In this document: positions 3,001 through 57,835 of the stretch, in pieces
Numbering within the stretch: position 1 is the stretch's first letter
Layout of the letters: each line of letters begins with the position of its first letter
Assembly (NCBI RefSeq): GCF_964204645.1
Contig: NC_134027.1
Coordinates: 2,450,485-2,514,484, forward strand
Reading direction: 5' to 3'
From: Tubulanus polymorphus
Lineage: Eukaryota > Animalia > Nemertea
Length of the DNA: 64,000 nt
The notes under the pieces: model-generated
What the model was told of the DNA's origin: nothing
The model's database searches: none
What the model saw: the letters and a program-made list of their open reading frames with translations, nothing else
Made by a program: the position numbers and the translations under genes

Positions 3001-3259
3001 GCGATTCGAGTCGGAATGCATAAAATATTTCCGCGTGGTTTTTTTGGTTTCAAGATTTTGTTGAAAATATTTGAATAATGCTGTAACAAAAACTAGAAAG
3101 TAATAGCAGCTTTTGAAGCAATCAGTTAGAAATTTTTTTTCCAGATTTCCAAACTTTCTTTACAAATATTCCTTAATCGAATACATCTCAGGTATAAAAA
3201 ACATTCATTCTGCGAAGATTATTTGCAATATGTCACTGACTGTCGTAATATTTTTTCAG

Positions 3260-9655
<6,396 letters not shown>

Positions 9656-11044: not shown

Positions 11045-13597
11045 ATGGACGCCGTTTCAAGAGCTGTTCCATGCCCAATTTGCGGCCGTTCTGTCAATTC
11101 TGCTTTTATCAACAGCCATATTGACAGCTGTCTAAGTGCGGAGAAGATTGAAGAGGACAGTCCCAAAAGTAGTTCTTATGTGTCTTCACCAACAGAAGGT
11201 TATCCTAAATAAAAAGTTTATTCTTAATCGCATGCTCGTTCAATCTAGTTAGAGCCCTTTAGAACTGGTGGTACCGTATTTCAGGTAACATGAACTCAGA
11301 AGCTCGTAAACCTTCTTCGAAGACAAAGCAAACACTGCTTTTTGGGGTGCCAGCAAATAACAAGAAACGTAAGGTGGAGAACGATGTACATGTAGTGGCA
11401 TCAACATCGGTAACCCAACCTGCTGGGAAGGCAGCAAAATCTGATGCTGCAACCCATGTTGAAAAAATGATAGATTTAAATGGTGTGAAACCATTAGCTG
11501 ATCAGATGAGACCAAATTCATTGGAGGATTTTGTCGGTCAAAAACAAGCTGTTGGTCAAAGTACAACGCTCAGGTCTTTACTCGATGCTAATCAGATTCC
11601 CTCATTGATTCTGTGGGGTCCTCCTGGTTGTGGAAAGGTAATTAAAATTTGTCAGATTCACAGAGATTCGAAATCTAGAGAATTTCCTGAAAATTAAGGT
11701 TAATCCTTGAACATCGTCTAAATGATAGTAAATATAATTTTCAGACCACATTAGCTCATATCGTTGCAACTCAAAACAAGTCTAACGAAAAATATCGCTT
11801 TGTGAAGATGTCAGCCATCAGTTCCGGTGTAGCAGATGTGAAAGAAGCGATAAAACGTGCACAAAATGAACTGAAAATGTTTAAACGCAAAACGATTCTA
11901 TTCATCGATGAAATTCACAGATTTAATAAATTACAGCAGGTTTCTATATGATTCAAAACAGTTAACCTACTGCGCTTAACTCAACATGGCCAACTTAAAA
12001 CATTCAATTTACTCGGCAAAAACAAAATCATTTTCTGACTTTCTTACATAGCCTTTTTTGCGATTCTTGTAGATTGTTGTATTTTAGGATGCATTTTTGC
12101 CACATATTGAAGATGGGACAATTACATTTTTCGGTGCAACAACAGAAAATCCATCCTTTCAAATCAACAACGCATTGTTGAGTCGTTGTAGGGTGATAAC
12201 TTTAGAGAAATTAACAGTAGATGATATCGAAAATATCTTAAAACATGCGTTGTCTCAATTAGATATTGGTATCGTTGAAGATGACTGCAGGATTGTTGAA
12301 GTCAGGTGAACATTCGATATAGAACCTACTTGTGCTTTCAAAGTTACTTGATGTTAAAAGTACAGTAAATTTTATAGGAAAATGAATAAGAACATGATAA
12401 AGCAAGCAGCTGTGAAAAATCTAGCGTATTTGTGCGACGGTGATGCTCGCAGTGCTTTAAATGGTTTGCAAGTTGTCGTTCAATCCCAGATAGTAAAACA
12501 ATCTAATACTACTGATAGTGATCTGGGAGGATTTGTTGTTATCACGGAGGAACACGTTAAAGAAGGTCTTCAAAAAGCACATTTACAATATGATCGCGCT
12601 GGTGAGTTATTACAGTAAAACTCAGATAAATTGTCACATCATATGAGTTCCAACTTCACTGAATAACCAATTTTCTACAGGTGAAGACCACTATAATTGT
12701 GCATCTGCATTTCAAAAGTCAATTCGTGGATCTGATGAGAATGCTGCGATTTACTGGTTGGCGAGAATGTTTGAAGGTGGAGAAGATCCACTATTCATAG
12801 CTAGGAGGCTTGTTGTTTGTGCTAGTGAAGATATAGGTGTGTTTCATCGATATCACCTACTCTATTATGGACATACCGTATGTAACTGAACTTACTTTTA
12901 AAATGATTCTATTTTAGGTTTGGCAGATCCTAATGCTGTAGTCCAGGCCAATGCTGCCTATCAGGCTTGTCACTTTATTGGTCGTCCTGAGTGTGGAGTG
13001 AGTTTTCTGATCTAGGATCCAACATAGATAGGTTTCCATAGACAAGTGACTGTCATATTCAATTGAAAAAAAGAGCCACAATTACAAATCAATTATTAAT
13101 TGAGGATTGATATTTTGACTAAAATGCCAAGCTGTTTTGAAAATGGCTCGTAGCATTCGAGTTGAAACGTCAAAATCCTCTATTACCGGGTAGTCTTACT
13201 TCATACAGGTTTTTCTCTCACAAATATATCTACAACCAGTATTCGTGTTTTATGATTTCAGATTAATTTAGCACAGGCCACAGTTTATCTCGCGAGAGCA
13301 CCGAAATCAATTGAAAGTTACCAGGCATTCAAAAATGCAAGAAAGGCTGTTGTTGATTGGAAAGGACCCTTGCCTCCAGTGCCATTACATCTCAGAAATG
13401 CACCCACAAAATTAATGTCAAAATTAGGTAAGTGTTGTTCAATTGAGTTCAGCTTAATTGATGACCATAGCTTTAACAATAAACCGTCTATTTTAGGTTA
13501 TGGTAAGGGCTACAAATACAACCCATCATTCACTGAGGAAGTTCATCAAACTTATTTACCAGATGAGATGATTGGTACAAACTTCTTTAATGGCTGA
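11045..13597 (+). CDS. WRNIP1: ATPase WRNIP1 (Mgs1/RarA family AAA+ with UBZ zinc finger)
   Basis: Exon 1 (11045-11198) encodes the UBZ '[21 protein letters not shown]'. Later exons give '[17 protein letters not shown]', Walker A '[10 protein letters not shown]', Walker B '[15 protein letters not shown]', 'GATTENPSF', '[11 protein letters not shown]' and '[22 protein letters not shown]'. TGA ends at 13597. Confidence 0.96.
13135..13175 (+). ncRNA. Degenerate hammerhead ribozyme-like motif in a WRNIP1 intron
   Basis: TTGAAAA-T-GGCTCG-tagcatt-CGAGTT-GAAAC-GTC-AAAA. Stem II and GAAACGTC are retained, but the core differs from CTGAAGA at two positions. Confidence 0.4.
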
Positions 13598-14295
13598 CAT
13601 TCGATCGTTCAATTCAATTTTTATAGGGTATGCATTTGTTTTGTAAGATATATCTGTTTAATACAGTGAAGAGAAAATATATCATTCTGTAGATTTTGTA
13701 TTGTTACTGTTGACTAGTTTTCAGGATAGAGACAGTATAACAGGTAAACAGTGAAGGCAGGAGCAATGAACAAACTATTCTACGTGTATTGATTGTTCAT
13801 TTATTTATTTAGCTTGCGTGATTTAATACAATCTGAATCTGTAATACACCCCAGAATAAATACGATTAAATTACAATAATCATTGTATCACAGATAATTT
13901 CGGAAGGTGGTACGTGTAAAATTAAATAATAAAATTGCGAGAAAAAATCAATCAACAATCCACAACCAATTTAAGAATACGCCTCGATTAATGAATATTT
14001 CAAAGTTTTACTTTGCACAAGGGGCCATCCGCAAAGTACATGAAATTAGCAACTTCTCTCTATGTACATAAAGTAATGAAAACCAGCAATTTTTGCGTGT
14101 CGGTATGTGCTTCACGGATGGCCTCGAAATGAATTTAATAAAATGCAAAGCTGATGAATTCTTGGCATTAAATAGGAATACATTATGTACACGACGTAAA
14201 GTGACAACATTCACACTTCGATGTAACATCAAATTTATGCAAATATGTTTGAGCTAAAAACCGAATAAACCAAACTGCTGCCTTACGCTAATCTC

Positions 14296-17200
14296 TCATA
14301 CTGATCTGTATCGACTTTGATTCACTCTACGACGAGACCAAACAAATGGCGATATTCCGATCATTAATATAGTCATACCGATCATAGGTCGATACATAAT
14401 CCACGAAATCGATATAATAGTCAAACTTAAACTGATCGATAAACAAACATTCATCATGTTCACTCCTAACACAATTATATCTCGTAAAATCGGTATCCAA
14501 TCCACTGAAAAATATAATTCATAGTTATATATACTAGGATCATACGGAGTTATTCTTACTAGTTATTACCCATCTGTCCATTTCTTGATTAACTTCCCGT
14601 CCAATTCTCATTGCGCCAGGGCATTAGGCTTTTCATCAAAAGTACCCCTTGGGGTTCCTTTTTGTCCTTTTTCTTGATTTAATTTTACAATGTACAAGTA
14701 CTTTCTTTAACTTTTTATTTTATGGAATATGATGACTGTATTTTAGTACAATGTATTGTACTTTACAATAAAGAAATAAACTTATAATAATAATGATAAT
14801 AATTCGAAGAACGCATTTTTAGAGTGATTTTAGATACATACGAAAAACTACTGAATTTACCTAATGTTGTTACAATATTCGTTAAACAGCCAAAACCTAT
14901 GAACATCATCAGCCAACCTCCAAACCTAAATGCCCACGTCACCAGTGTATTATGTGCTAGTTGTTTGTCAAATATTTCCTAAAATAAGAAGATGAAAGGA
15001 ACAGTTGTATTAGATTTCATCAGTCATGCATCTAGCTGGATCAGTTAAAGCAGCTGATTTTAAAACGTGTGAATGTACAACATTGATTTGGTCCATTCTT
15101 CCATGTGGGGCCAAATTAGAAGGGACTAAACTAGTGGCTTATGACCTGTGACTTTAGGACCTGTAGTTTCTGTACCTGTGGTGTATGTTCCCCCATATAC
15201 AATAATTCGATGTCGTATCCGTCTATTGTTGTTTGATATGATAGAAGATTGGTTCCCATTTGTCTTGCGATCACACTCACCTAGTGATAATCGATTTACA
15301 AAGCAATTAACATACATTATCAAACATAAGAAATAATATTTTATTGCATTGTGACTTACAGTGTCTGCCTTCTCACTGTCATCGGTCAGACCAGCGTAAG
15401 AAAATGTAACCTTGAGATCGCCAATCTGAAACATGTATACCTTATCATAATCTACACAAAAATACCCACTTGATCCAATTTATCAGAAATCTAGATTATA
15501 TATCATGTTTTACATATACCAGGTACATTTACGGTATAGGAGAACCATGGATCAGATCATAATCCAGATCAAACTGATCTGAATTAAGTGCGTTATAGCG
15601 TAGTTAAACATAGATTTACCTGAGGTCTTAATGGGTTTATACCATGGTAAAAATCGCCGTCATGTAAGATGACTTCTTTGTTCGCTGGGGCAGATTTTGG
15701 GAAGAATTTCTGAAAATCACTTATTTTCTCAGTTAGTCCTGGAAGAATGAAATGAAAGATTTTAAACGATCTGTGGACGATGAAATAAAAGGCGAAAACA
15801 AAACGAGATTCTATTCATACCGACTGATAGGTGAAAGTTTCCAACACGAGGATTTGCGGCGATGTCTTCTTTTGAGGTAACTGGAAATGATCTGCAATTG
15901 ATAATCAGCATCTGTTATTGTATGAACTACAGCTAAACATAAACGAGAATTCGAGTTCAAACGTACTGAGGATTATGATGTCCATTAGGATTATGGAACG
16001 ATGAAGATGAGGTCAGCTCTGAACTCCATTTCTGCGCTGCAAAATAATCAGATTTTTTTAAATTTCAGAATCCCAGCTGCTTGTAGTGAAATGAATAAAA
16101 CAATTCTGTATTTCTGTCATCCTCCCCGGCAGGGATTCGAACCTGATGGCATCGAGATTGCCACGGCACGAAACCCTGCCATAATCGACCGTGTGCGCAG
16201 ATACATGCGCAGTTCAGATGATGTGATTTTTAGCCAATCAGAAATCCCGTTTTATTTTAGCCCGGGTTTTCCCATTTATAGTTCTTCCTTGAAATTTGCC
16301 TCAACAATTATACAACGAGCAATCTGATTGGTGCCGCCAGTTTTCGTTCGGAAAGCTGCGCATGTACCTGCGCACCCGGTCTACTGATGCAGGGGTTCGT
16401 GCCGTGGCTGAGTGTAGCGATGCCATCAGGTTCGAGTCCCTGCAGAGGGAGGATGTATATCTGTATGCAAGTACTAACTGTATGAATAAGATGTTTCTAC
16501 TCTGGTTTGTCCATCCTCCTCAAATTCCCTAAAATCATCAAAATTTGTTCGTAAACATTTCTAAGTATTTGAAGAATGAGAAGCTATCAATGAAATACCA
16601 GTATTGTATTAGCATGAGGTGCTATCCATTAAATATTACCTTTTGGATTCTATTTCGACCCACTGATACATCTCAACATGGCGTTTTAATTTGATAGCAT
16701 TTACCGTTATATCATATTCAGCATCATGTACGGCCTAAAATGTTAAATCAGCAAAGTATTTAACAAGCTTAGATTAGTTTTTAAAAACTCTAAACGGGGG
16801 TAAGATTGATGAACCATGGACTTTTCACACAATCCCTCACTTTTCTTTAATTTTTTCACATGTTCATGATTTTTCAAATTTTACAAATTTTTTAGAAAAC
16901 ATCAATTTTTCACATTAATCTTCGACTCCTCGTGGAACTAGATACTGTCAAATAGGAGACAAACCTTGTCAGCACGAAGTGGGCCGTGGACGTAGATTAG
17001 TTTTCCGTTATTTTCCTTAAATGCAACCTCAAACGACTGAAAATTTCGAACTAAGTTGATTCCCTCGTGCAATGATTTCGAAGTTTTAACCGCTCGACCC
17101 TGTAAAAAGTGTAAGTGGGAGAATGCATTAATATGTGAATATGAATATGTGTAGTTTCAATTCAAAATACACACTTTTCTTTAATCAAACGCACCTCATT

Positions 17201-17591
17201 CCAAAACAATAAATAACTAGCAGTTGCTAACAGTGCTAAACCGGCGAGGAATGCCACTAGTCCATTCTTCACTCTCTCCCCAAATGTCGGCTGTCTTCTG
17301 AATGTTGTTCTTGTTGTCCCAGTTGGATGTTGGTCTTGCATGTTATGCATGCCAGGGGCCTCTGGGAACTAAAAGGTAAATTCGAAATTCAATAACTAAT
17401 CAAACAATTCTGTCAGAAATAACCTCAATGACTTTCGATATTACAAAAAGGAATAAATGCTAATTGTTATTTGACTTGATTTTGATTGGATGACTGAATT
17501 GCACTTTTCTCGACTTGTCTTATGGCAAGAGCTCTATCAAATTCGTGCAAATACAATGGATATTACTGTAACATACATGTTGTCGGTACAT
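14296..17591 (-). CDS. TMEM43: Transmembrane protein 43 (LUMA) homolog
   Basis: Micro first exon 17577-17591 (MYRQH), then 'YLLFWNEGRAV', 'LKRHVEMYQWVE', 'IGDLKVTFSYAGL', 'TWAFRFGGWLMMFIGF' and the last exon 'VDWIPILRD...WIMYRP'. Confidence 0.93.
16118..16455. mobile_element. MITE/foldback element with long imperfect TIRs, in a TMEM43 intron
   Basis: CATCCTCCCCGGCAGGGATTCGAACCTGATGGCATCG...CCACGGCACGAAACCCTGC...TGCGCAGATACATGCGCAG is mirrored at 16355-16455. Confidence 0.8.
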
Positions 17592-18000
17592 TTGGTTATT
17601 AGCTCAGCCTATTAGAAGAGGTGATATTACGAGTAGAAGCCAATAAATTAAGAATGAATGCAGAATGAATCATTAATCTGTCAAAATGTGCAAAAGTTGG
17701 AAAACCCCATTGGGTATCCCAGTTAGCTAAATACCGAAATTAACCGATAAAATTTTCTCAAAGTTTATCGATCACGTAGGCAATGTAAAGAAATTATCTT
17801 TATGCCAATCAGCTGCAGCTGCATACAGCTTTTATATATTTTTTATCTACGAATGTTTCCCCAGAAATGTTTCAACTGATAAATAAATTTTGTATTTGAA
17901 TTATCGGAAATGAGGGGTAGTCACATGATACTTAGTGAACAAAATGGTGGACGACCAAAACAAAACCCAAAACGGCGCTATTAAACGCTAATGATGAATT

Positions 18001-19877
18001 ATGGAATCTTCAACGAATTCAAATTTAAGTGACAGTGTTGATTATAAAGTCAAACGGACTCCAACAATTACCTCAACTATTGTCGGAACGGTGGGAAATC
18101 TAGCCTACTTTATTTTGTCGTTTGTTAATCCCGCAATCGTGGGATTCGATTAACAAACGTATTACAATTACTGATAAATGATGATGATACAATGATAACA
18201 ATGCCAATTGAAAATTTAAATGTAATATTTTTTGCAGACGAGGACAGTTGAAGCAATTAAACCGAAAGAATGGTCATTTCTTGCCTTGACATGTTTGAAC
18301 TTGTTTCTTACAGTCGCTCTTACAATAGAGCGATTAGTGGTTCTAATTATCTATGAAAAGAAACCCACTTCACAAGATTTCACTTTTGCCATCTTACTTC
18401 TGTTGAATATCGGTTAGTAGCGGCTGCCATGGGTTTAAGCATTTTTTTCTCATGTAAATAATGAAGAAAACAGCAAATAAGTCGGATAAAAACAGGATTA
18501 GTTTAATAAATGGTGTGTGCATTTTCAGGATTCTGTGGATTTTACGCTATTCATGGTGTTCTCAGAGAGAGAGTATTTGAGGTCTATGCGCTCATTGCTG
18601 CTATATTAACAGTTGAACTCTATTGTATTATTGAATATATAGAAAATGTAGATGGAAGAAATACAATCAAGCTGGTAAATATTCCAAGAATTGAATAGCT
18701 TTTTCTGATGATAACACTAGGCATTTTGTAAATTAATCTGCTATTGCAGGTGCGTTTGATTGTTATTTGTGTTCTGGCTCCTTTGAATATATTCCTAGCA
18801 GTGATTGCTGCTAAAGGTTTTGGATTTCTGGACTGTAGAATCGTTGGGGCTACTCAATTCATGCAAAGTAAGATAATAAGATGTTAAAGCATTTTGTAAA
18901 AGATATAAATTATGCATTGAAATATTCTACGGATGTTTATTGGCATCAATTATTTCCAGGTATCTACAGAACATTAACCATATATTCCTGTTTCCTGAAA
19001 TTTGATCTTCAAGTAGCTGTAAGTTTTGAATGAAGCCATCAGGAATAATAAAGCTCCATTCGAATTTATCAAGAATTTTTGATTTTACTAAATTTGCAGT
19101 TGAGTATCGTTGTATTAGTGATGGTGAATGGAACAAATGTTGAATTATTTGAAATCATCACGTTATCAGTTGGGATTCCATATTCTATCATATGGACAAC
19201 ATTAGGAATTATATTCGTAAGCATCATAATGAGAATTGTGAAGGCACCGTTTATGCTGGTACATGTGTATAACCATATGAGCGACAATCTCTTCTCTCAT
19301 CTTTTCTTCAGGTCCAGAAAGAAAACAAGTTTGGAATGATTTTTCTAGCCATTTTGTCCCTACCTGCTCCAGCATATGTGATATACAAATTGATATATGT
19401 AAGAAATTTCATATGCAAATAAATCTGTATTAAAATTTGTGGTAAATTTTCATGACAGCAATACTTTAAAATAGAAAATATTTTTCTAATTAAAGGTTTA
19501 TTCTAGAATTGACACGATGAAGCCATTGGAAAACGAGGTTATTTTGTATTCTCAGTTCTTTGCAAGTAGGTGATGTTTTAATGAATTTCATTTGTTGCTA
19601 TATTTTCGTTACAATCGGGCTGATGGAGATAATATATTTTTATTAAATAGGCGCTCTGTTTCTGATAGTGAGGTTTCTATTGGCATTTGAAGGGATCTCT
19701 GTCTACAAGAACTTCGGGAAAGGATTGAAAGAAATCGATATACGTAAGCGGCAAGATTAGAATTCTTTGATACGATATTTATTGCGAATTCATCTAATAT
19801 GATGTGGTAATTTATTTGTAGCCGATGAACCAAATGAAAGATCGGGTTTGCTGAGTGGCAGATCACATACTAATTGA
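18001..19877 (+). CDS. Uncharacterised multi-pass membrane protein
   Basis: About 10 short GT-AG exons join in frame from ATG 18001 (MESSTNSNLSD...) to TGA 19875-19877, with many hydrophobic helices. The motifs 'FLKFDLQ' and 'YKNFGKGLK' resemble, from memory, the UPF0658-like family (unverified). Confidence 0.8.
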
Positions 19878-21943: not shown

Positions 21944-41882
<19,939 letters not shown>

Positions 41883-44144: not shown

Positions 44145-46408
44145 ATGAAGTTTACTCTTAGGAGAGTAATTGGCATCGTTTTAACTATTTATTGCATTTT
44201 TTCATTCTACATCGGGTATTTGCTTATTCTCAGAAACGCGTGCGAAACCAAACAACTGAGAGCCGCTGAAAATTCATTGAATTCCGGTAAGTTAACAGCA
44301 GTGTCAGTGCCAATTCAAATATAATTTTATTCATAAGAGAACGATGATAACCACACTCAAACGTGGTAAACGGATAATAAGTTAAAACCCACTATCTACA
44401 GATTAAAAGAATTTAAAAACAAGAATTTATTTATTCAATCTAAAATATATATAAGACACGACGTTTCGATCTCACCCTTAGATAGAGATCATCGTCAGGT
44501 GTGATCGTCACCTGACGATGATCTCTAGGGTGAGATCGAAACGTCGTGTCTTATATATATTTTAGATTGAATAAATAAATTCTTGTTTTTAAATAATTTT
44601 ATTCAGTCAAACATTTTGAAAGAGATAGAGTATAGACGTATTTTTTTCTAATTCTAGTATACGCAAGTGATTCCGATGATGAAAATGATTCAGATATCGA
44701 AGTTTTGCCGCCGCAACGAGAAAAACTTTATGACGAAAGAGAAAGTTTGTTGTCGACTTTAAAAAATGACAAACAACAAGAATCTGCACCTAGCCGGCCC
44801 CTGATTGAGATCTGGGGAAAGGCCGCTATAGGTAACATATCTATTTGAGAGAACGTAAATCTTTTGATAGATTGTGCTCAGATTATCAATATATTTCAGG
44901 AGGATATCTGTGGGAACACATTTTAGATGGAAGTTTAGAAGATGAAGAAGATGGAATGCGCATCTCAGGATTTCAACAACTTCGCAATTTTAATCTTAGG
45001 TCGGTTATTCCTATTGAAATGATGTCTCAATCGATGTATGAAGTTAATTTACTATTGGATGATCTAAGCTACTATTCACCCCTAAACTTCAAATACGAAT
45101 GTCATTTTACCTTTATAGTACAAACCGCTTAATTTGGCTCATTTGGGATTGATGAGATTAATCCAGTTTAATTAGGTTTATATGAAGATTGATCCACATT
45201 AAGAGGGTTTCACTGTATTATTAAACTTTTTAAAGATGAACTCTATGAAATGATGACTATGAAACTTAGGGCTTGGTTTTTAGGTATCGATCTGGTCCTG
45301 GATTCATTCAAACTACCGTTCCACAAGACATCGAAAATCTCGTACTCATCCTCAACGGCAGGGAGGATATTAAAGTGAAATTCGCTAAATCCTGGTTGGA
45401 TTATTTGCCTCGCTATAAAAAACTACAGAATGTCGGTGTGATATTGTTAGGAAATGAGCGATGTGACAATATTTGGATTGAGCCGTATTTGAAAAAGAAC
45501 GGTGGTTTAATCAAAGCTCTTTTCATAGTGTACGACAGTCCAGCAGTCGACAATCAAAGAATATATCAATGGCCTTTAGGAGTCGCGACGTATGTACTGA
45601 AATAGCTGTTTTACAGGGTGACCACTGACCTTGAAAATAGGGCAGGAAAACATTTGATTTACCTCTAGTTGTCACCCTGGTATTTCGAAACGAATGCTCA
45701 AATGGTTCTCTTGAATAATTATGAACATTCTATTTCAGGTATCGCTCTTTCCCAAAAGCTGAACTGACGTTAGCGGATTTAGAAACACCTCGTCCGTTTA
45801 TGTGCAATTTTCTAGGTACAGTTTATAAGAATTCTAGTCGAGAAACGTTGCTTCAAATCATCAATTCACACGATTTAGGCAAATATTGCTACCTCAAATA
45901 TAGAACTACGTAAGTATCATTCGGTAATTCAGTGACAGTAAGAGCCTCGCAAAAATTCGAGCTTATTAAAATGATCATCTTTCTCTCATTCAGATGGGCG
46001 TCCCAGGAATCGGATGATTCGATGAGTAACTATGTTAATGTCCTCGCTCAAAGCGATTTAACTTTAAACCCGATCGGTTTCAATACGGAATGTTATCGAA
46101 TCTACGAAGCGATGTCGTTCGGTTCGTTGCCAATAGTCGAGGATCAAATGACAGCGGGAAACTGCGGAAATTCATCGACATCGAAACACGCTCCGTTGAG
46201 ATTACTGAAACAAATGGGTGCTCCTATTATCTTCATCAAACACTGGTCAGAACTTCCTGCTCTGATAAAAAACGAACTTAAATTGACCGCGAAACAAAAA
46301 GCGTTACGTCGCAAACGGATATTTAATTGGTACGAAGGATTCAAATCAATAATGAGGGACCAGTTTCTGACTGTTTTAGACAATCATTTCTTTCATAATT
46401 TCTCATAG
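44145..46408 (+). CDS. RXYLT1: Ribitol-5-phosphate xylosyltransferase 1 (TMEM5)
   Basis: Exons 44145-44286 (signal anchor 'MKFTLRRVIGIVLTIYCIFSFY'), 44658-44831 ('IEIWGKAAIG'), 44900-~44999 ('YLWEHI'), 45283-~45589 ('VLILNGRE', 'LLGNERCDN', 'QWPLGVAT'), ~45739-45909 and 45994-46408 ('SDLTLNPIGFNTECYRIYEA'). Confidence 0.94.
44456..44502 (-). ncRNA. Minimal type-I hammerhead ribozyme motif (minus strand)
   Basis: ACAC-CTGACGA-T-GATCTC-tatctaagggt-GAGATC-GAAAC-GTC-GTGT. Confidence 0.8.
44509..44548 (+). ncRNA. Minimal type-I hammerhead ribozyme motif (plus strand)
   Basis: CAC-CTGACGA-T-GATCTC-tagggt-GAGATC-GAAAC-GTC-GTG; predicted cleavage after 44545. Confidence 0.8.
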
Positions 46409-46435
46409 CTCGATGATCAATTAGACATTTTAAAC

Positions 46436-46572
46436 CTGAAGCCGGTTGCTTAAAAGTTGGTTAAAGATTAGATAACCAACAGATAAATACCACAGTAACA
46501 ATGAACTTTTAATTTTCACTACGTCAACAATCCACCAGTTAACTCTAACCAACTTTTGAGCAACTGCAGCCT
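46436..46572. mobile_element. MITE, same family as 53337-53445
   Basis: Termini GTTGCTTAAAAGTTGGTTA / TAACCAACTTTTGAGCAAC and the shared core CAGATAAATACCA.AGTAACAATGAACTTT. Confidence 0.75.
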
Positions 46573-47842
46573 CTGGTCTTTAATAACTCATTTTGCTCCA
46601 TATACCTTAGTTTTGTTCATGTGATAAATATTGTATTTTGTTGTTACGTAAATATTCAATCATGTCGTAAAGTGCAATTTTTTTACCGCCATAGATTATT
46701 TTCATGCTTTAATTCCAGCCTTGATAGTTCATTTAGCTGTAGTGTGATTTTTTTCTAGTAAAATACTGCTAAATTGCCCTTTGAAAAGATCATGGAATTT
46801 ATGGATTCAAACCTTTAAGTTTGTACTCAATACTTCTAGTGTAATATTCACTAATGCATTTATGTCGTAATACTGGTGCTCAATAAATGTATTGCCACAT
46901 TGGATTTCATTGTAAATTCTTTTCTTGTTGCGGTTCATTACTTTATTAATAAGCAATAATTCGACAGATCCAGCAAGGTCGACAGTTTAACTTAAGATAA
47001 CTATATGATTATGTTATCTATCAATTTTATTTGATATGAACGTCTTGACAACACATTCTTACAATTAAAACATTAAGATGTGACTAATTTTATTTCAGCA
47101 CAGTATATTTCGTGATAGTAGCTGTATATATTGGAAGCCTCAAGTATTTTTGTCAGCAGCTGCCTTGAACATAACTACGAACAGTATTATGCGGATTCAT
47201 TTTTCGAATGCGTAAAAAGTTAAAACATGATAGATGTTGTACACAAACCAATCATCACAGACTGCTGCTTGTGGACGGAATACAGAGGCAACGTTTTTCT
47301 CGCCAAAGCATCATTAATCGAGATGGAGTGCCATAATTACTAGACGTTTACATATATTAGAATACAATGAAAGCCAATTGAAATACGGCAGTATCTAAAT
47401 GCAGTAGCCTTCATATAGCACATAATATCAATTGTGTTTGATCATAAAGGCTTAGATAGTATTACATTCAAACCACTTAACAATAAAGAAGTACCAGAAT
47501 ATAATATGAAGAACTCGATATGAACTTTCCATAGTAACGAAGCTTTAAGTTCAAACTCGTTTAAATCGTCATCACATCATTAAAGTTATCTCTATTTTTG
47601 AGTCCTAAATTGTTTTTCCAATTCGATCTACTACGGTAAGTATAAGTCGTCATTCAGATAAGTCATCGACATATTGATCATCCCAACAACAACGACATAA
47701 GCGAGTTTGACTGTCTATTACATAAGAAACCAAGAGCAAATCAAATCTAGGAAAACATGATTTTGATTAAGTAGTCATGAATGTAAAACGTTTAATTCAG
47801 TAATTATTAAACTAGGTTATAATATCAATCGGTACACCTCCC

Positions 47843-49400: not shown

Positions 49401-49627
49401 ATCAATCTTACTGATTAATATCTATCGAAGTGCAGTTAAAGCCGAGTAAAACTGTTTTAAATGCCGCTGTTGATCAGTGATTTATTTATTTCTACTCATT
49501 TGTTTACGGAAGTAGAGAAATACACGAGAAATTACTGTTCTCATTGGAAATTAATGTATGTTGTATCCGATAGATGGCAGCAACTCCTGGGCGTTTGGCG
49601 TTCGTTTGACAGCTAATAGGAATCTTG

Positions 49628-52600
49628 TTAAGAATCTGCGTTCATCGCTTGTTCTACTTGTTTAAAAAGTTCGGCAGCTTCTTCACTAGCAGAACACTGT
49701 ATGACAAACTGTGTAGCTTGTTCTACTCCAGCAGTCTGCTGTTCCTGTTGCTGTTTAATAACTATAGTTTCTGCCGGGTTAAGACTGGCTCCTCCTGTCT
49801 GCTGGAGGCTTATCGAATCACCCTGTTGAGCTTCTAACAATTCCTTTAAAAAGTTATACACACGTTACAAACAATAAAATTGTCAAGAGAACAAAGATGA
49901 AATAATAAGCATTTGTGAGGCCTACCTGCTGCTGGGCAATAATCTGCTGTAGAATGTTTATTGTTGAAACTGGTTTCGCATTCATTTCTCCTTCTACAAT
50001 AAATATAAGTATATATAAACAACTCCTCAATCGTAGATCCAACTATGTGTGTAGTTCTCATGATTTCTTACCATTAAATTGTAGTGATTCTAGGGAAGCA
50101 GTGGATTCAATTGATGGCTGATTATTACTGATATTTAACTGAACAACCTGTAAATACAAACATTCATTGGGAATGATTAACAAGTGGTTCGACACCAACT
50201 CAAAACATTTTTTACGAAATATTAAAAAGTTGATCGAAAGACTGAAGATTCAACTAATGTAAAAAGCCAGCAGTATTTGAATCTGCACTCAGCACTGATA
50301 GCGAATGCATAAGCATCTCACCTTATCCTGCTGAGCTACTGAGGTAAATTTATTTGTTTTACTTTCAAAAATGATGAGAATGGCAATAATCTATGGAATG
50401 TGCGAGGGATGGATCAAGCGAGACAGCGGATAAGCTGTTCGCTGGTCTATACACACCTGAGTTTCAGCGTTATCACTGAGTGTTGTAGTTGCCGACCCTT
50501 CAGCGCTGACCATTACATTATCACATGACTCGAATACACGTATATCTTCAACCTCCAGTAGATGTGCATCGCGTAAATGATGATGAATTAATTCAACATT
50601 TTCGAACAAACTATCGCACGATAAACATTTGAACATCTTGAAAGAATCGAGTTGTTCCGTTGTCGTCGTCGTCAATGCTGTAGCGGTGTTGTTATGGTAA
50701 CGATTGTTATGCGTCCGTATAGCTCCGAGGGCGTTCGTTGAAAATTCACATTTTTCACATCGATATTGTTTTAAAACCTCGTGTCTCGTCATGTGTTTGA
50801 CGAGTTGACTCTTCTGTTCTGCATTATACGGACACCTGATTATAAAATCAGATTGTTATTCTATATCAAAAGAGGTGTCTCTTTTTTGCTCCATTCAACT
50901 CAAGTAAACGAATAAACAAATACAGTCTATCCCGCTTAATTTGGATCATTTGGAACCGACGCAATTCATCTGGCTCATGAGAAATATGGATTAAACACGT
51001 AGGTGCACCTCAAATATTATCCATATCGGATCAAAATCTGCAGGAAACTCTAAATTAATCAGGTTTGACTATTAGACTTCAGATAAATCAAAATACTTAC
51101 TTGGTACATTTAAAAATACGTCCGCCATTTTTATGAGTGCGAATGTGGCATCGTAAAGCTGTCTTTGATTTGTATTTCTTATCGCAGTAATCGCACTGTA
51201 ATAGTTTCGTATTATAATGTCTCAACATGTGTATTTTCAGGTTATTGATATTGCTACTCGTGTGCCGGCACAATTCACATCTAAACGTTTTCTTTGCTTC
51301 ACGCGTGCAAACATGTTTCTGAACATCCGTACCATTTTGCGCGACGAATACCCGATCACAATTTGGACACCTGTTTACTCGTCGACCTAATGAAAAGTTT
51401 TTTCAATAATCAAACGATTTGTAAATAAATTTTGACACACGGTGGTTATCCATCGGATATGTACTCACTAATATTGATGGATCTTTGAACCTCATCTCTG
51501 TTAAAATCTGGATGTTGAGTCGAGATGTGAACGTTCAACATTTGCTTACTGAAAAATTCAAATATAAATTACAAAGGAAACACCAGCGATTCATTAAGGG
51601 ATCTATAGCAGTACACTTACTCAGTAAACCTAGTTTTACAGACAGGACAATCGGATTTAGAAGACTTGTGTTTTTGAAGATGAACCCACAGTTGGTAACG
51701 ACCAATAGCAGTAAACGAACAGGCTTCCTCTGTACAACTGTATTGAATGTATTCGTGATATTTCTCGATATGACGCATCAGTGTTCCCTTGTTTACCGCA
51801 TGATAATCACATTTATCACATGGAAATGGTTTGTCACCTGTAAATAAATCAACAGTTTTAAGATTCAAAGATTCGTATTATTACTGATACCGCTTCGATG
51901 AGATTTATGCTGGCATTCTATACTGTATAGGCCAAAAAAAATTGATACCTTGTTTCTCCGCTCTGCTGAGCTTAAATGTTGACCCGGCCGGCCACCTATC
52001 TACCCTATACATTACTTTTTTTTAAATCGTGATCAATTTCACCATAGCAGACCCGGCCGCTATAGAAATGAACTGTTTATAAATTTTATCATATTTTACA
52101 AAAATGACCCGGCCGCTGCGGAGAAACAAGGTATCATTTTTGTTTAGCCATAGCATTATGACTGACCTGTATGCGTAAACAGATGAGGTTGAAGATCAGT
52201 AAGATGATTAAACAGACGTCCACAGTACTGACACTCTTTATCACCGAACATCTCTTTAATCTTATTCAATAGATCCGTGTTCAACAAATGATAATTCAAT
52301 TTTTCATAAATATCGTACGAAAACATCTGAGTTCTTTCATCGATCGTTTCATCCTCAGTTGTTCTCCGATCCGAGTCCGCTGAGGCTTCGATTAAAATAT
52401 CAGTTTCATCGGCGGCGCCACGTAGAATCGATCGTAATTGTTCAGACTCGTCGACCGTGGCTACGACGTCCGATAGACTTCGAGTAGAATCTTTAAGTAA
52501 CGTTGTCGTTTCTTCACTCGCGCAATTGTCGCTAGTTTCCGGTGGTAGTTTTTCCAAAAGCGAACAATTCTCTTCCAGCAGCGACGGTTGATCTGTTGCG

Positions 52601-55341
52601 AGTAGATCGATCGTACCGTCCGGCTCCGGTAAAAACAAACTCGCGTTAATACACGAATCAAACAAGTTCGATCTGATTCGTTCGTCGGATGGTTGCGGAC
52701 AGTTCTCCGACAAATGAAACTCGTCTAGATGTTGATTTAACTGCGCGGCGCTAGCAAACCTCAAACTGCAGATCGCGCAACAATAGATAATGCGATGTTT
52801 TTGCATGTGATATTCCAGGTAACGACGTCTATGCGAGCTATAATCGCAAACCTCGCATTTATACATTGTTTGACGTACGGAGAGTTTGTGAACGAATAAA
52901 TGTCGATCGCGGTCGATTTTCTTTTTGAATTTACGATTGCAGACGTGACACTGGTGTAACACGGCGCCCGCCGAACTCGCAGTTTGTCTCGATAGAAACT
53001 GTTGTAAGTAATCGACGCCTCGTTGGTTCGAACCGTGATATTTACGTACGTGATTTATCAATGATTTCAGCGTACTGTAATCGTTTTGACAGATCTCGCA
53101 TCGATGTCGTTCGGCGTTGTGAATCGATTCGTGATCGATCACATGACTGCGATTCACCGATTTAAAATCGCACGATTTACAGCGGTAAAATTGTCCGGTG
53201 TGCTTCCGCATGTGTGTATAAAGATTCCCTAAAATATGAAATTTTTCAATTTCTTAAAGACTTAAGACATAAATTCAAGAAGTTCCGAGGAAATCAAGAT
53301 TGAAATTCCCCAATTTTTGAGTCCAGATAATATATCCTGGGGTCAGTAGCTCAAAACTTGGTTAAAGATAACTGGCAGATAAATACCATAGTAACAATGA
53401 ACTTTCAATGTCAACTCTAACCAACTTTTGAGCCACTGGACCCTGTGATCGCGAGAGAAATCCCACAATAACGAAGCCAAGATTGAAAAATTCTATATCA
53501 GAATGATTATATTTGAGGAGCAACGTTTCGCCTGTACGTCAGGCCTGTCACAGTACGCTCATGATGGCTAACAGTTGTTAGCCGAAACGTCGCTCCTCAA
53601 ATATAATTTTCAAATATAGAATTTTTCAATCTTGGCTTTGTTATTGTGGGATTTCTCTCGCGATCACAGGGGCCAGTGGCTCAAAAGTTGGTTAGAGTTG
53701 ACATTGAAAGGTATACGCTTACCTTTTGAGTTCGATGTATACGAACACTTGGTACATTTGAAGGGTTTCAGATCAGTGTGAGTTAAACAATGATGTCTGA
53801 TATGAGACAACGATTTAAACACTTTATTACACGTATTACACGAGTAAATCGTTAATTCCTGCGAACCTCGACTCGTTTGGACTGACGTCGTTTCATTCAA
53901 GTCTTGCTCGATCTTATGAACTCGAAACATGTGCTCGAAACTGCTGATTTCGACGTTTAAACTGTCGTCGAATCGACGTTTTTCGTCGTCGGTCGCGAAA
54001 GTCGGCGCTTCACTGACGCGAGGAATCACGGAATTCTCTAAAAGCGAAGCCGGGTCGTCCGGTATCGATTCTAAGCCATTGCTTAATTCGATCGTTACGG
54101 CTGGACTCGGTTCGACGTCGTGATGATTCTCTCCGATAGAATCTGCGTCGTCTTTTCGGTCGGTAGAGCCGCGATGAATCGGATATCGAGTACGTTTTTG
54201 TTTTTTCAGCGGTCGTTCACTTTTCAGACGAAAATCACCGTCTTCATCCTCGATTTCATCCACATTATCATTTTCCCCGGCGGACGCAGCAGCAGCAGCA
54301 GCAGCGGCAACAACACTGTCATTATCAGAATCACACATCGCTTCATCCACATAATCAATACCTGCTAAACACCTGTGCGTTTTAAAATGGCGTTCCTTCA
54401 AAAAACTCTTCTTGCATTTTCTGCAGCTGATTTTTCCATTTTCTACAATAAATATTTAATCAAAATGATCACAAGCATGAAAATTATTTTGAACGAGGGG
54501 AAAAATTTGTAAAATCTGTACCTAATATTAGGGGTAGTTGTTGTTCGGCTTGTTTTTGGATGACTGGAACAGAGGGCTTCGTATCAGAATCTTTCACTTT
54601 TCTAGGTCTTCCTCTTTTTCTGTTGGATACTTGAAAATAAAGATTTCGGGATTAGAAAACTATTTTATTATTTTCAACGGAAACTTTTGAATAAATTTGA
54701 CATTCAATAAAATTTACCAGCCGGTTTTGATATCAAAGAATTCATCTGTAAAGTTCCGACATTCTCTGATACATCCAGAATAAAGTTGCCGCCGCTATCA
54801 TTGATAAGAATTCCATGAATGCTCGCTAATGCACCTTCTGATATTTCATTGGGCAAACAACAAATCTGTTCGGCTTCTTCAGTTTCTACAAGGAGAGGGC
54901 ATTCACTGTATTAGGGATGCCATCAGCAGCACCGAGAAGATTTAAAATTAGAACAAGAGACCAGGGCAGGGGCCAGTTAGTTGCAGTCAAGGCTTAAGAT
55001 TTGAATCCAGTGACTGCAGTTAAGTGTTAGTGTAATTAAAACAGTGTTATGTGTTATGTAAGTAACATAATGGGCTGTGTTATGGGCAGGTTAGGTACAT
55101 ATCCATTAGGGACACTTGCTCCCTGGACTCTAGGCCTGTGCAGCAATCGCTTGTCAGCTGTTTGTTGTATTGTTAAACAGGTAATTGTGATTAGCCTACC
55201 GATTGAATTTGTTTGTTCCTTTGTCTGCTGGGTCTGAGGTGATTGAAAACAACCGATATTTTTGTGGTTAATGAACAGTTGTAGATCAGTGAATGATTCG
55301 TTGCAATCTCCACAAATATGCGTATCAAATCCCATTTTCAT
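49628..55341 (-). CDS. ZFAT: C2H2 zinc-finger and AT-hook protein, ZFAT-like
   Basis: Isolated N-terminal finger 'HICGDCNESF', AT-hook 'RKRGRPRK' (~54600) and the finger cluster 'YSCNTCNKVFK...KPFKCTKCSYTSNSKGNLYTHMRKHTGQFYRC', which follows the ZFAT pattern. Further fingers extend to ~50560, then a Q-rich tail and TAA at 49628. The start codon is approximate. Confidence 0.75.
51930..52149. mobile_element. 220-bp MITE copy 1 (PIF/Harbinger-like)
   Basis: TIRs GGCCAAAAAAAATTGATACCTTGTTTCTCCGC / GCGGAGAAACAAGGTATCATTTTTGTTTAGCC; 3-bp TSD ATA. Confidence 0.88.
53337..53445. mobile_element. MITE, same family as 46436-46572
   Basis: Termini GGGTCAGTAGCTCAAAACTTGGTTA / TAACCAACTTTTGAGCCACTGGACC. 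Confidence 0.75.
53402..53710. mobile_element. Long palindrome centred on degenerate HHR motifs, in a ZFAT-like intron
   Basis: Arms ~53402-53530 / 53583-53710; centre CTCATGA-T-GGCTAAC-agtt-GTTAGCC-GAAAC-GTC; tail TTATTGTGGGATTTCTCTC. Confidence 0.8.
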
Positions 55342-56599
55342 CTCCGAGACAGAATACTTGTCTTTTTTGACGTGTGTTACGCAGACTACAATGTGCAAGA
55401 GTCGAGAGTCTAATCCTGGCTGGCTGGTGAGTGGGCGCCGGCAGTAAACCTTTAGCAGTTTAGTAAACCTTTTTCAATCCATTCTGCATTCATGAAATAA
55501 CGCATTATAACGTGATTTTCAGAATGTTTAACACTACACCTACAGTTCCGTTCGGCGCTATTATCTGGCTCACTTTCAATTTCTTCGTACCCCCTCCCAA
55601 AAACTTTTACTCCTGCATATTATTAATCAGGGAGGTCTGGAGAATCAAAATAAATTACTTTTGACTAAAAAACCAACAAATTTTTAAAAAAATCAAAATT
55701 CTGATAATTTGGGACCGATTTCATCGGGTGTGACTTTATAGTTAAACCGGATTGATTTCATCGATTCAAATCGACGGGTCGGCCATGTTTCCGCACTAAT
55801 TACCACCTTAAAATATTTTATAGGCCCACCGATACCGTACGAAATATTCTAAATATTCTAAAATTTAAGAAAAAAAAACAGGTGGCGGCGGCTAAATTAG
55901 GAGGGGAGCTGTTGGTTGGGAATCAAAGAAATGTATTCTTATGGCCTTATTGAAGTACCGTCATGTTCATGTCAATTGTTCATAAAACACTGATTTATTA
56001 AGGCCCTAATCGAATATAGTTGAGCTTTTTCTTGATAATTGAGATGTCATTTGAATAGTTGACAGTTTGATAATGTTTAATGTTACTATTTAATAAAAAT
56101 GACTATTAAAATTTGAGAAAAGCTAAAAGTTATAATTTGATGTGAAAATAAAATGATGTAAAAATGTAAATCAGATTGATTACTTTATCCTACGCTTTCC
56201 AGTATTTGGCCAGGTTTATCTCTGTTTTTAGTGCGGGTGCCATGGACGATTGAGTCCATGGTTGGGCCATAAACTTTTTTTGTTTTAGAGTCTATGGTTG
56301 GACCATGGGCGTATAACTCTCATTTATTGTTTATATGGTGGTTGGATAATAGTTGTTTTTGAAAGTCCACTTGTTTGAGGAGCTTACATTATAATTCCAC
56401 GAGCACTCCTGGCATTTTGTATAATGAGAATAAATATGATTGATTTTGAAATTTGTTAAGTTTGATATAGCAACTCCTGGATAAAGGCCTAAATCGATTT
56501 AAGATAAACTGAATTAATGAAGAAATTATATCGATTTAAGTGTTAAACCTTTTTATGAAACTGGGCCGTGGGCATTGCTGTTGTCCAATCAGTTTCACC

Positions 56600-56709
56600 C
56601 AGGGATCCCAATGGAGTTGTAGGTAGTGTAAAAACGATAATCTGTTAATCCAGTGTCTGTTAATCAACAGGTTTTATATACTACCTACAACTCTGCTACG
56701 AGCCCCTGT
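56600..56709. mobile_element. Small MITE with CAGGG termini (hAT-like)
   Basis: CAGGG...GAGTTGTAGGTAGTGTAAAAAC / GTTTTATATACTACCTACAACTC...CCCTG. Confidence 0.55.
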
Positions 56710-56859
56710 GTTTTATTCTTGCAATGTACTTCTTTTTTTTTCAACCCAATAAATAATCCCACCAACTGGTCCGCTGGCAAACTTTTGCACGTTCGGAAGA
56801 CATGATTATGTGATTATATGATTCAATGGCAAAACCAATACGACTTTATTGCACATTAC

Positions 56860-57730
56860 ACTGGGCCTGTTGACAGTTGTTGATGGAAAAAGTCGCACGA
56901 TTCGAATTTTATATGAAATAATTTATTAAAACGAAACCACAACGTTTCGACTGTTGGCTGATGGCCATCATCAGGTGGAATGAACAGAAAACAGAAGTAA
57001 TGTATGTAGCATAGGCCTATAAACTTACAGGACATAAACAAAAGTGATGTGTCAGAATAAATGTAAACAGAACAAGTGACAGATGAAAACAACCAGGGGT
57101 ACCGTACCTTAGAAACCACAAAATTCTATGAACAGTTCAGGATGAATACAAATTATGTAACGGAGTGAAGTCGACCAGGGGGCCGAGTAGAAGAGGACGG
57201 AGAAGGCAGTGTGACACAAAGTGACATTAACCAAAATCTAGTAGAGAGTGTTGATATCTCTAGATAAACAATTGATTATGTGGCTGGAGGTGGTAGATAA
57301 GTTGGATTTCGAAAGTTTACAAATAAGGGCTGATTCCACTGTGTCTCTTATGGATGTCTTTACAAGGATAAATGAGTTTCGAATGTTCAAATACTTCTTG
57401 CCAGATAATTGAACAGTGAAGCAGTGTTCGATTCTGAAATGGGAAGCTGTTGGTTATTCCGTAATGATTGTATTATATATGGAATACGTTTTCTTGTTGC
57501 GACGAGTTTTTGGATTGCTAGAGATGGTCTTTGCTGAATTTCGGTAATGGTTTTAGTAAGAATCAGATTGTAACATGGATGTTTGAATTGTTGAAATGCT
57601 GTCCAGTATTCTAATAGATGTGTGTAGTAGCCTATAGAAGTTGTTTGCAATGATGTTTCAGAAGTTATGAATGATGGTTGAAAGATTCCAGCCTGGGCCA
57701 AGATGATTGGAATTATCTGATTTATCATCG
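56860..57730 (-). mobile_element. Decayed Penelope-like retroelement 3' fragment (post-RT region, GIY-YIG C-terminus, HHR-bearing 3' end)
   Basis: Frameshifted peptides 'AFQQFKHP...IPYIIQSL' and 'FEHSKLIYPCKDIHKR/TVESALI' resemble PLE C-terminal motifs. They are followed on the same strand by an HHR and AATAAA. Confidence 0.55.
56937..56978 (-). ncRNA. Minimal type-I hammerhead ribozyme motif
   Basis: CCAC-CTGATGA-T-GGC...GTC-GAAAC-GTT-GTGG, with a 4-bp stem I and a weakened stem II. Confidence 0.7.
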
Positions 57731-57835
57731 CAACATTGCTAAATTGAACGCAATGTGAAGAATTTCCCTAACGATACCAATAAACATCTTGCTTTTCAGA
57801 TAGTGACAATGAAACACGCTTGTTTTCAACAATAG

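Follow-up and report, generated by a model that had tools for sequence, protein, structure and literature searches.

Head-to-head hammerhead hairpins in three introns of Tubulanus polymorphus as likely footprints of Penelope-like element insertion

Hammerhead motifs and inverted repeats in the window

The window, that is, the whole 64,000-nucleotide stretch of Tubulanus polymorphus contig NC_134027.1 analysed here, carries hammerhead-like sequences in introns of the junctophilin, RXYLT1 and WRNIP1 genes, in an intron of a zinc-finger gene and between zinc-finger and USB1-like coding exons. The layout sought consists of CTGAnGA, one base, stem II and GAAACGTH. Four exact matches are present (24286+, 44512+, 44498- and 56974-), whereas 60 windows resampled with a first-order Markov model had none at all. 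The site at 53558+ keeps the layout with one core mismatch, and the site at 13137+ has two; resampled windows contain, on average, 0.1 sites at that level. A search of the window against Rfam (E<=1) returned four weak unrelated matches and no hammerhead. An earlier note on this DNA had listed six hammerhead or hammerhead-derived loci with a shared layout and five different stem II sequences. The layout and the exact cores at 24286, 44512/44498 and 56974 hold, while 39265 has no recognisable core and 13137 carries its two mismatches. Nor are all of the families independent: 24283 and 39265 form a single family whose 3′ motif also occurs in 53556.

Three loci are long hairpins, extending over 24199-24385 (junctophilin intron 1), 44398-44607 (RXYLT1 intron 1) and 53402-53710 (intron of the zinc-finger gene, which lies on the minus strand). 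Their inverted-repeat arms measure 82 nt (100% identity), 81 nt (95%) and 102 nt (96%), and score 90-120. As the earlier note had described, the axis lies at or near the hammerhead, at +6.5, -6.5 and -1 counted from the first base of the core and thus within 7 nt of the minimal core in every case. The inverted copy sits next to the 5′ end in all three, in a head-to-head arrangement, and the partner arm is predicted by folding to mask the ribozyme. The units are 190-310 bp long and hold no reading frame between the arms. Target-site duplications (TSDs) of 15 and 13 bp flank two of the three; these duplications and the one-sided tails described below were overlooked in the earlier note. An assembly artefact is an unlikely source of the hairpins because TSDs are present and raw reads hold other hairpin junctions of the 44502 family.

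Anatomy of the loci

At 24283, the left TSD copy (24149-24163, plus strand) is an exact 15-bp match to the right copy (24385-24399, plus strand), a length reached by 0/1430 random flank pairs. Between the left copy and the arm lies a 35-nt tail on the inverted arm only (24164-24198, minus strand), whose alignment to the 3′ terminus of the 39265 copy identifies it as element sequence. The inverted arm (24199-24280, minus strand) starts at +18, inside stem II or its loop, and matches 24304-24385 at 82/82 nt. The sense arm (24281-24385, plus strand, sense to the host gene) contains a complete minimal hammerhead with its core at 24286 and a 6-bp stem II. The identical arms fit one template as well as two. 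A solo, decayed relative about 80% identical to this family lies in junctophilin intron 3 (39240-39385, plus strand, sense to host); it retains the tail, and has a damaged core and no inverted arm. Reads from elsewhere than the window contain a 69-nt tandem hammerhead unit of the same family.

The 44502 hairpin is bounded by a 13-bp TSD whose left copy (44321-44333, plus strand) exactly matches the right (44593-44605, plus strand); 2/1430 random flank pairs reach 13. The inverted arm alone carries a 77-nt 3′ extension (44334-44410, minus strand) covered by high-copy reads ending near 44346. Both arms hold complete hammerheads, with cores at 44498 in the inverted arm (44411-44504, minus strand) and at 44512 in the sense arm (44509-44594, plus strand); the host intron spans 44287-44657. 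Among the best 15 of 687 read joints, other copies of the family are joined to 44509 from 44387, 44410, 44467 and 44474, and no empty allele with a single target site appears. A read pile-up at 44384 was considered as a tail boundary and rejected, its loose letters resembling the reference as expected of an indel variant.

Loop II is 5 nt longer in the inverted arm than in the sense arm, and 1048/1770 reads at that site of the family lack those 5 nt. Together, these observations suggest two family variants, although the remaining reads need not all carry the 5 nt. They bear on a rather unlikely alternative that assumes the same Penelope-like element (PLE) origin, namely that one template or cDNA folded back and primed its own copying to give each hairpin, a route suggested for the Penelope elements of Adineta on the basis of their junction palindromes (PMC3846280; this and the other published studies are cited from excerpts). 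The perfect identity of the 24283 arms and a 12-bp internal palindrome at 56959-56970, which resembles a small fold-back, agree with such an origin. The loop II difference at 44502 does not, the junctions in the window hold fillers instead of perfect palindromes, and fold-back alone leaves a one-armed tail with a TSD outside both arms unexplained.

The 53556 locus is composite. Its inverted arm (53402-53530, minus strand) starts at +25, and the outer part of that arm is a separate MITE-like repeat (53338-53446), present whole on the left-arm side, partly mirrored on the right arm and found as a second copy at about 46440-46575. A junction filler with its own short hairpin (53531-53557) is unmatched in the other arm. 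The latter (53558-53710, plus strand, antisense to the host gene) contains the hammerhead with one core mismatch and an 8-bp stem II, and comes to within 12 nt of the 5′ splice site. With the MITE making up the outer part, a one-sided tail is hard to read here.

Recurring joints raise the question of whether the palindromes are a separate mobile class in which the entire hairpin is copied as one unit. The joint from 44474 to 44509 occurs in 62 reads and that from 44387 in 48 (again among the best 15 of 687), which at a single-copy depth near 10 represents several copies each; MITE sequence in both 53556 arms points the same way. Yet junctions vary widely among copies, the ends are asymmetric, unlike the terminal inverted repeats (TIRs) of DNA transposons, and recurrence at 44474 may reflect microhomology because the joint falls on a short repeat found in stem II and again 5′ of stem I. 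Such a class is highly improbable. An ordinary MITE or foldback DNA transposon was rejected: the left TSD and the arm are separated by unpaired stretches of the element (35 and 77 nt), and the TIRs are not symmetric.

Two further loci are solo or doubtful. The copy at 56932-56982 (minus strand), between the zinc-finger and USB1-like coding exons, has an exact core, a 3-bp stem II and the internal palindrome. The earlier note had called this locus (56937) the only non-palindromic copy with an intact core, outside coding regions; the exact core and non-genic position stand, but "intact" applies to the core letters only, since stem II is just 3 bp long and in the predicted fold the core is paired to an inverted piece within the copy. 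Two minus-strand frames upstream of this ribozyme (57241-57453 and 57390-57767) gave no Pfam match, no homologue and only sub-0.9 Atlas matches, and a profile built from 16 PLE-like proteins did not match them. In a WRNIP1 intron (12998-13261), a possible hammerhead remnant with two core mismatches occupies 13128-13180 (plus strand). The short decayed arm attributed to it (13135) was rejected as chance level, with a score of 19 that 6% of 2886 random positions reach.

Intronic location and the hinge

All three palindromes are intronic, as the earlier note had stated. A selection filter could be at work, in which sense hammerheads left unmasked cleave the pre-mRNA and are removed, so that introns keep only masked or broken copies; this would be compatible with a PLE insertion origin. 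In line with it, the three intronic hairpins are predicted to be masked, two intronic solo copies in sense orientation have damaged cores, and a preprint, as excerpted, reports tandem retrozymes to be depleted in Xenopus introns after size normalisation (42-44% still overlap introns). However, at least half of the non-coding DNA of the window is intronic, so the chance of three out of three falling in introns is at least 0.12, and the window gives intron selection no statistical support. Hairpins without ribozymes also lie in junctophilin introns (26113-26374 and 38843-38907), and the sole non-genic solo copy is itself predicted to misfold. Moreover, single minimal hammerheads showed no cleavage in vitro, the ribozyme of the Poseidon PLE of Anolis (PAc) requires the element's protein (PMC11167929), and head-to-head pairing is the usual outcome in other families, at loci taken irrespective of gene context. 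The filter is quite unlikely to account for the pattern.

Metagenome loci were collected with a hammerhead-only pattern or with family profiles, without selecting for palindromes. Among likely true hammerheads with enough flank, an inverted copy lies upstream in 22/70 and downstream in 0/52. Family profiles for three other families gave a partner 5′ of the ribozyme in 26 of 43 copies and 3′ of it in none. As a control, a looser pattern run on viral contigs yielded an inverted-arm score of at least 40 in 0/120 loci. Head-to-head stumps are the majority product in some families (18/26). The outer ends of the inverted arms fall into two groups, at 85-95 (10/26) and 105-130 (15/26).

The position of the inner ends addresses a further possibility, that self-cleavage or the folded ribozyme stops reverse transcription or makes it switch template and so sets the hinge. 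The axes in the window are consistent with this, as are the starts of partner arms in the metagenome, which fall within the ribozyme on the 5′ side of the cleavage site in 10/26 and at the ribozyme 5′ edge in 9/26. So are the 1232 reads with loose ends at 44509, although that pile-up falls partly where the reference itself stops. In a long family, 2/10 loci are hinged at the ribozyme even though most copies reach 100-645 nt upstream. However, none of the six arms in the window starts at the scissile bond (+34), their starts ranging from -6 to +25, and of the 26 metagenome arms only two have their start 5 nt or less from it, roughly the number expected under an even spread, with five further 3′. 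Hinges also occur away from the ribozyme, at -116 in locus L193 and about 350 nt upstream in L150 and L151. According to the excerpted studies, Naiad PLEs invert without canonical hammerheads (PMC8557442) and PAc insertion is unchanged in ribozyme mutants (PMC11167929). A hinge set by the ribozyme is thus very unlikely. The earlier note had proposed template switching at the ribozyme as one of two options; breakpoints are instead spread from -25 to +71 and not tied to the cleavage site, and a cleavage-defined hinge was rejected. In four of the five families, the sequence common to copies mostly begins no more than about 20 nt from the core, whether the copies are solo or palindromic. The fifth runs on upstream into a frame that has, among its homologues, the RT and GIY-YIG protein P0135 (42%, E 6.5e-9). 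Its profile matches the window at 24280 and 56977 (E about 4e-4), mostly on the ribozyme itself.

Comparison with Penelope-like elements

The 15- and 13-bp TSDs, the one-sided 3′ extra sequence, the head-to-head polarity, the variable junctions and the several hundred family copies make it likely that the hairpins are head-to-head pairs of short ribozyme-bearing repeat ends, left as dead-end insertions of endonuclease-bearing PLEs that nick and prime on two strands. The element's enzyme would nick both DNA strands and one cDNA would be primed from each nick, the two then being joined at their inner ends into a head-to-head pair. A staggered cut would produce the TSD, reverse transcription starting at two sites downstream of the ribozyme would leave one arm with a tail and the other without, and end joining with small fillers or microhomology would create the hinge. 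With a copied unit of only about 100-150 nt whose start is usually the ribozyme 5′ edge, the hinge would come to lie close to the ribozyme. The ribozyme is probably a passenger that does no cutting at these loci, and nothing here shows it causing the fold or introns selecting for that fold.

This anatomy has close precedents. In excerpts of PMC8557442 and PMC3846280 (the latter for Pen2a_Av), insertion units of endonuclease-positive PLEs comprise an inverted 5′-truncated copy, a tail of 30-40 bp on one end and a TSD. The head-to-head polarity, the one-sided 3′ extension, the TSD outside the arms and the hammerhead near the 3′ end are alike in the window, which differs in its short units without a frame between the arms and in the length of its TSDs (13-15 bp versus 8-10 bp in the Adineta examples). 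The 35-nt extension at 24283 fits the PLE range, and the 77 nt at 44502 exceeds it. The 53556 hairpin, with no TSD found and arms that include part of a MITE, departs from a PLE insertion unit. The window yielded no PLE reading frame (RT/GIY-YIG), so no parent sharing the same end is at hand there, whereas one is present for the metagenome family whose profile weakly matches two window loci.

The excerpts of PMC4209133 describe minimal type I hammerheads of metazoan PLEs, with which the hammerheads of the window, identified as such by their letters, share the lack of helix III, the palindromic GAAACGU junction, the extra base before stem II and a long stem II. Several sequence families per genome and opposite-strand pairs are likewise common to both, but those pairs are spaced 100-700 bp apart and the window copies overlap or lie within about 50 bp. 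For PAc, in vitro work (PMC11167929) describes nicking and extension of both strands, copying from two start sites at either end of the tail, about 100-150 nt downstream of the ribozyme, and equally good insertion with a dead ribozyme. PAc differs in being autonomous, its pLTR extends well upstream of the ribozyme, and the excerpted work describes no joining of two cDNAs into a hairpin. Animal non-LTR retrozymes (bioRxiv 10.64898/2026.07.22.740005) are, as excerpted, similarly non-autonomous and PLE-derived with a type I hammerhead. They form head-to-tail tandems able to give active dimers, whereas the window loci are head to head or solo; with no head-to-tail tandem hammerhead units within the window, identity with non-LTR retrozymes was rejected.

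The earlier note had proposed a class of self-silencing mini-elements mobilised by PLEs. Anatomy and literature agree with PLE mobilisation, and a new self-silencing class is not supported. What the note had itself listed as counting against its proposal is largely what is seen: an inverted copy with a one-sided tail and TSD is the PLE unit that PMC8557442 and PMC3846280 report in their excerpted parts, minimal hammerhead pairs on opposite strands are on record in PMC4209133, and the breakpoints are scattered along the element. The loci likely add nemertean examples of an already described footprint. A broader idea, which we regard as doubtful at best, is that the hammerhead 5′ edge is a programmed PLE copying boundary across animal phyla. 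One cDNA would end at a ribozyme that is folded but uncut (or at a splice junction or transcript start in helix I), the second cDNA from the opposite nick would be joined to it, and each insertion would bury its own ribozyme, with the hammerhead acting as a structural stop signal and masked copies enriched in introns.

Twin-priming inversion of L1 elements also involves two priming events from two nicks, a microhomology joint, a TSD and a poly(A) tail, the inverted part being a different upstream part of the RNA. The two priming events, the microhomology joint and the flanking TSD are alike, but L1-type inversion was rejected for the window, where both arms copy the same stretch and poly(A) is absent. 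A literature search of openly available main texts found no published breakpoint distribution for palindromic non-autonomous PLEs, no PLE twin priming and no study testing whether introns select for masked hammerheads. In the excerpted literature, how PLEs insert and what their hammerhead does are treated as open questions. Thousands of such junctions offer a free data set on two-sided priming versus fold-back and on the ribozyme 5′ edge as a stop site. Head-to-head stumps also matter when repeats are annotated, since they resemble MITEs or miRNA hairpins.

Hairpins and hammerhead motifs in the window

Three long inverted repeats, at 24199-24385, 44398-44607 and 53402-53710, are centred on hammerhead ribozymes (loci 24283, 44502 and 53556) and all lie within introns, as the earlier note had described. 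Their axes fall +6.5, -6.5 and -1 nt from the first core base, confirming the reported position at or near the hammerhead. The three hairpins are real, and their layout has already been described for insertions of Penelope-like elements (PLEs). Exact minimal-hammerhead motifs occur four times (24286+, 44512+, 44498- and 56974-) and are absent from 60 Markov resamplings. The hammerhead at 53558+ has one core mismatch and that at 13137+ has two, a level resampled windows reach 0.1 times each. The short decayed arm attributed to the 13135 locus is at chance level, matched by 6% of 2886 random positions, and 39265, listed as one of the hammerhead-derived loci, belongs to the 24283 family, of which it is a solo copy in a decayed state. 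The non-palindromic copy at 56937 does retain an exact core motif (56974-), but its stem II is just 3 bp and its core is predicted to fold into another hairpin.

At 24286, 44512, 44498, 56974 and 53558, an extra post-core base and its neighbours form an ATG in every copy. These may be start codons of the parent element; the reading frame of PAc, the Poseidon PLE of Anolis, begins at stem II (PMC11167929, excerpts). Directly upstream of the 56937 ribozyme lies a low-copy repeat (56980-57770, minus; read depth ~80 vs ~10) with overlapping frames of 126 and 71 aa on the same strand, for which a homologue search found none. What is left of a parent element's 3′ end after decay could account for it. 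Ribozyme-free hairpins occur at 26113-26374 and 38843-38907 in junctophilin introns. The arms of another imperfect hairpin without a hammerhead (16118-16455) carry an outward-pointing motif that resembles a tRNA B box.

Copies in the same species and in other animals

Genome-wide tallies are based on raw reads and on copies from other species. The reads come from one DNA run labelled as this species, sampled at 12%, and their counts are among the matches listed. Depth is ~10-fold on single-copy bins vs 1800-4000 on the 44502 element, which is present in several hundred copies. In other copies of this family, position 44509, the 5′ edge of helix I, is joined to 44387 (48 reads), 44410 (8), 44467 (20) or 44474 (62), so that one arm starts at the ribozyme edge while its partner ends at varied places. 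Loose read ends at 44509, where the reference itself also stops, number 1232; their agreement of 0.58, vs 0.40-0.49 at other repeat ends of the same run, points to extension into common upstream sequence in a minority of copies. Backward jumps from 39294 to 39265 occur in 439 reads, 253 of which share 39 intervening letters. Elsewhere in the genome, the 24283/39265 family has a hammerhead unit of 69 nt arranged head to tail, with roughly 25-45 joints, and such tandem units could form active dimers.

A hammerhead-only pattern, scanned against 1 of 64 parts of a metagenome collection, returned 109 loci, presumably animal DNA co-assembled with microbes. A filter for likely hammerheads (family of at least 3 or stem II of at least 5) was passed by 72 of the 109. 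Where flank sufficed, an inverted copy lay upstream of 22/70 filtered loci and downstream of 0/52; it was found in 1/35 rejected loci, and in a looser test none of 120 viral control loci reached a score of 40. Family profiles, built for three of the five (43 loci), counting the nearest match per locus and excluding further matches in L189, L206 and L219, place an inverted partner upstream in 18/26, 6/7 and 2/10, and downstream in 0/43. Of these 26 partner arms, 9 begin at the 5′ edge, 10 inside the ribozyme, 2 no more than 5 nt from the cleavage site and 5 further 3′, with the caveats that decay blurs ends, an inserted hairpin can later lose its centre by deletion and the search requires the whole ribozyme in one arm. 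Common sequence mostly begins within ~20 nt of the core in four families, palindromic or not. In the fifth, where 5′ ends are scattered, it extends upstream by 100-645 nt and enters a frame related to a protein with RT and GIY-YIG domains. Some hinges are distant from the ribozyme, at -116 in locus L193 and about -350 in L150/L151. The latter two, GIY-YIG-linked family copies lying head to head ~700 nt apart on one contig, are a long version of the short hairpin structure.

Insertion structure and possible origin

The 24283 insertion reads 15-bp target-site duplication (TSD), 35-nt tail, inverted arm, sense arm, TSD; 44502 reads 13-bp TSD, 77-nt extension, inverted arm, 4-nt filler, sense arm, TSD. 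Among 1430 random flank pairs, 13 is reached twice and 15 never. Neither the TSDs nor the one-sided extra sequence figured in the original description. The 24283 tail is element sequence, since the 39265 copy ends in a stretch that aligns with it. A TSD was sought at 53556 and none was found; its arms run on into a MITE-like repeat (~35-nt terminal inverted repeats; 53338-53446 and 46440-46575), part of which is mirrored in both arms, so that either the RNA template contained it or the hairpin was lengthened at the DNA level. Another repeat (51929-52149 and 58674-58894; 221 nt, 98.6% identical, terminal inverted repeats, mean depth >2000 in its bin) is a young, very abundant MITE-like family.

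The proposed new class of structure is not upheld, since excerpts of PMC8557442 (Naiads without canonical hammerheads included) and PMC3846280 already describe an inverted copy with tail and TSD. Opposite-strand hammerhead pairs are reported in PMC4209133 (excerpts). A literature search outside supplements and repeat libraries found no paper mapping hinges against the ribozyme.

Template switching at the ribozyme during reverse transcription, also proposed, is disfavoured: the six window arms start between -6 and +25 (two sense-arm starts are upper bounds), none at the scissile bond (+34), and the metagenome arms rarely start near it. The PLE cycle is the best fit. Staggered nicks would be made in both strands, each would prime one cDNA that starts at either of two sites 3′ of the ribozyme, and the inner cDNA ends would then be joined. 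For PAc in vitro, both strands are nicked and extended, two start sites flank the tail and ribozyme activity is dispensable (PMC11167929, excerpts). We infer that the arms are separate cDNAs, and likewise how they are joined; the 44502 arms differ in a loop, which is a hint of two templates but could be slippage. Fold-back self-priming (PMC3846280, excerpts) is a live rival explanation. The hinge lies close to the ribozyme chiefly because the copied unit is short and begins there; an RNA start, a splice junction or a stall may set this beginning. Excerpts of PMC4209133 give a splice-junction precedent in D. virilis.

Introns and masking

The window contains animal DNA: one of its junctophilin exons matches, at 100% identity, a database protein labelled Tubulanus polymorphus (ribbon worm). 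Genes located in it by Pfam and exon mapping are WRNIP1, TMEM43, junctophilin, RXYLT1, an RMP-domain gene, a zinc-finger gene, a USB1-like gene and a kelch gene. A frame change in junctophilin exon 3 (38373-38511), relative to a database protein flagged low quality by its source, is probably an assembly indel.

In predicted folds of the three pre-mRNA hairpins, the partner arm in each case takes the place of helix I and the GAAAC junction, which would mask the ribozyme; such predicted masking is no proof of selection. In favour of the suggestion that only self-masked or broken ribozymes persist in introns are this prediction, the sense orientation and damage of the two intronic solo copies, and a preprint, in excerpt, that reports retrozymes depleted in frog introns. 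However, because at least half of the window's non-coding DNA is intronic (a lower bound from a hand-estimated exon total), three of three intronic hairpins are expected with P of at least 0.12. Hairpins without a ribozyme share those introns, minimal hammerheads tested singly in vitro showed no cleavage (PMC4209133, excerpts) and the sole non-genic solo copy, 56937, looks misfolded. Intron selection is not shown.

The 53556 hairpin makes up 309 of the 494 nt of its intron (53229-53722, minus), starting 12 nt from the 5′ splice site; conjecturally, it may affect splicing or RNA editing. Long (TA)n and GA-rich tracts occupy 5087-5260, 30300-30730 and 37220-38140.
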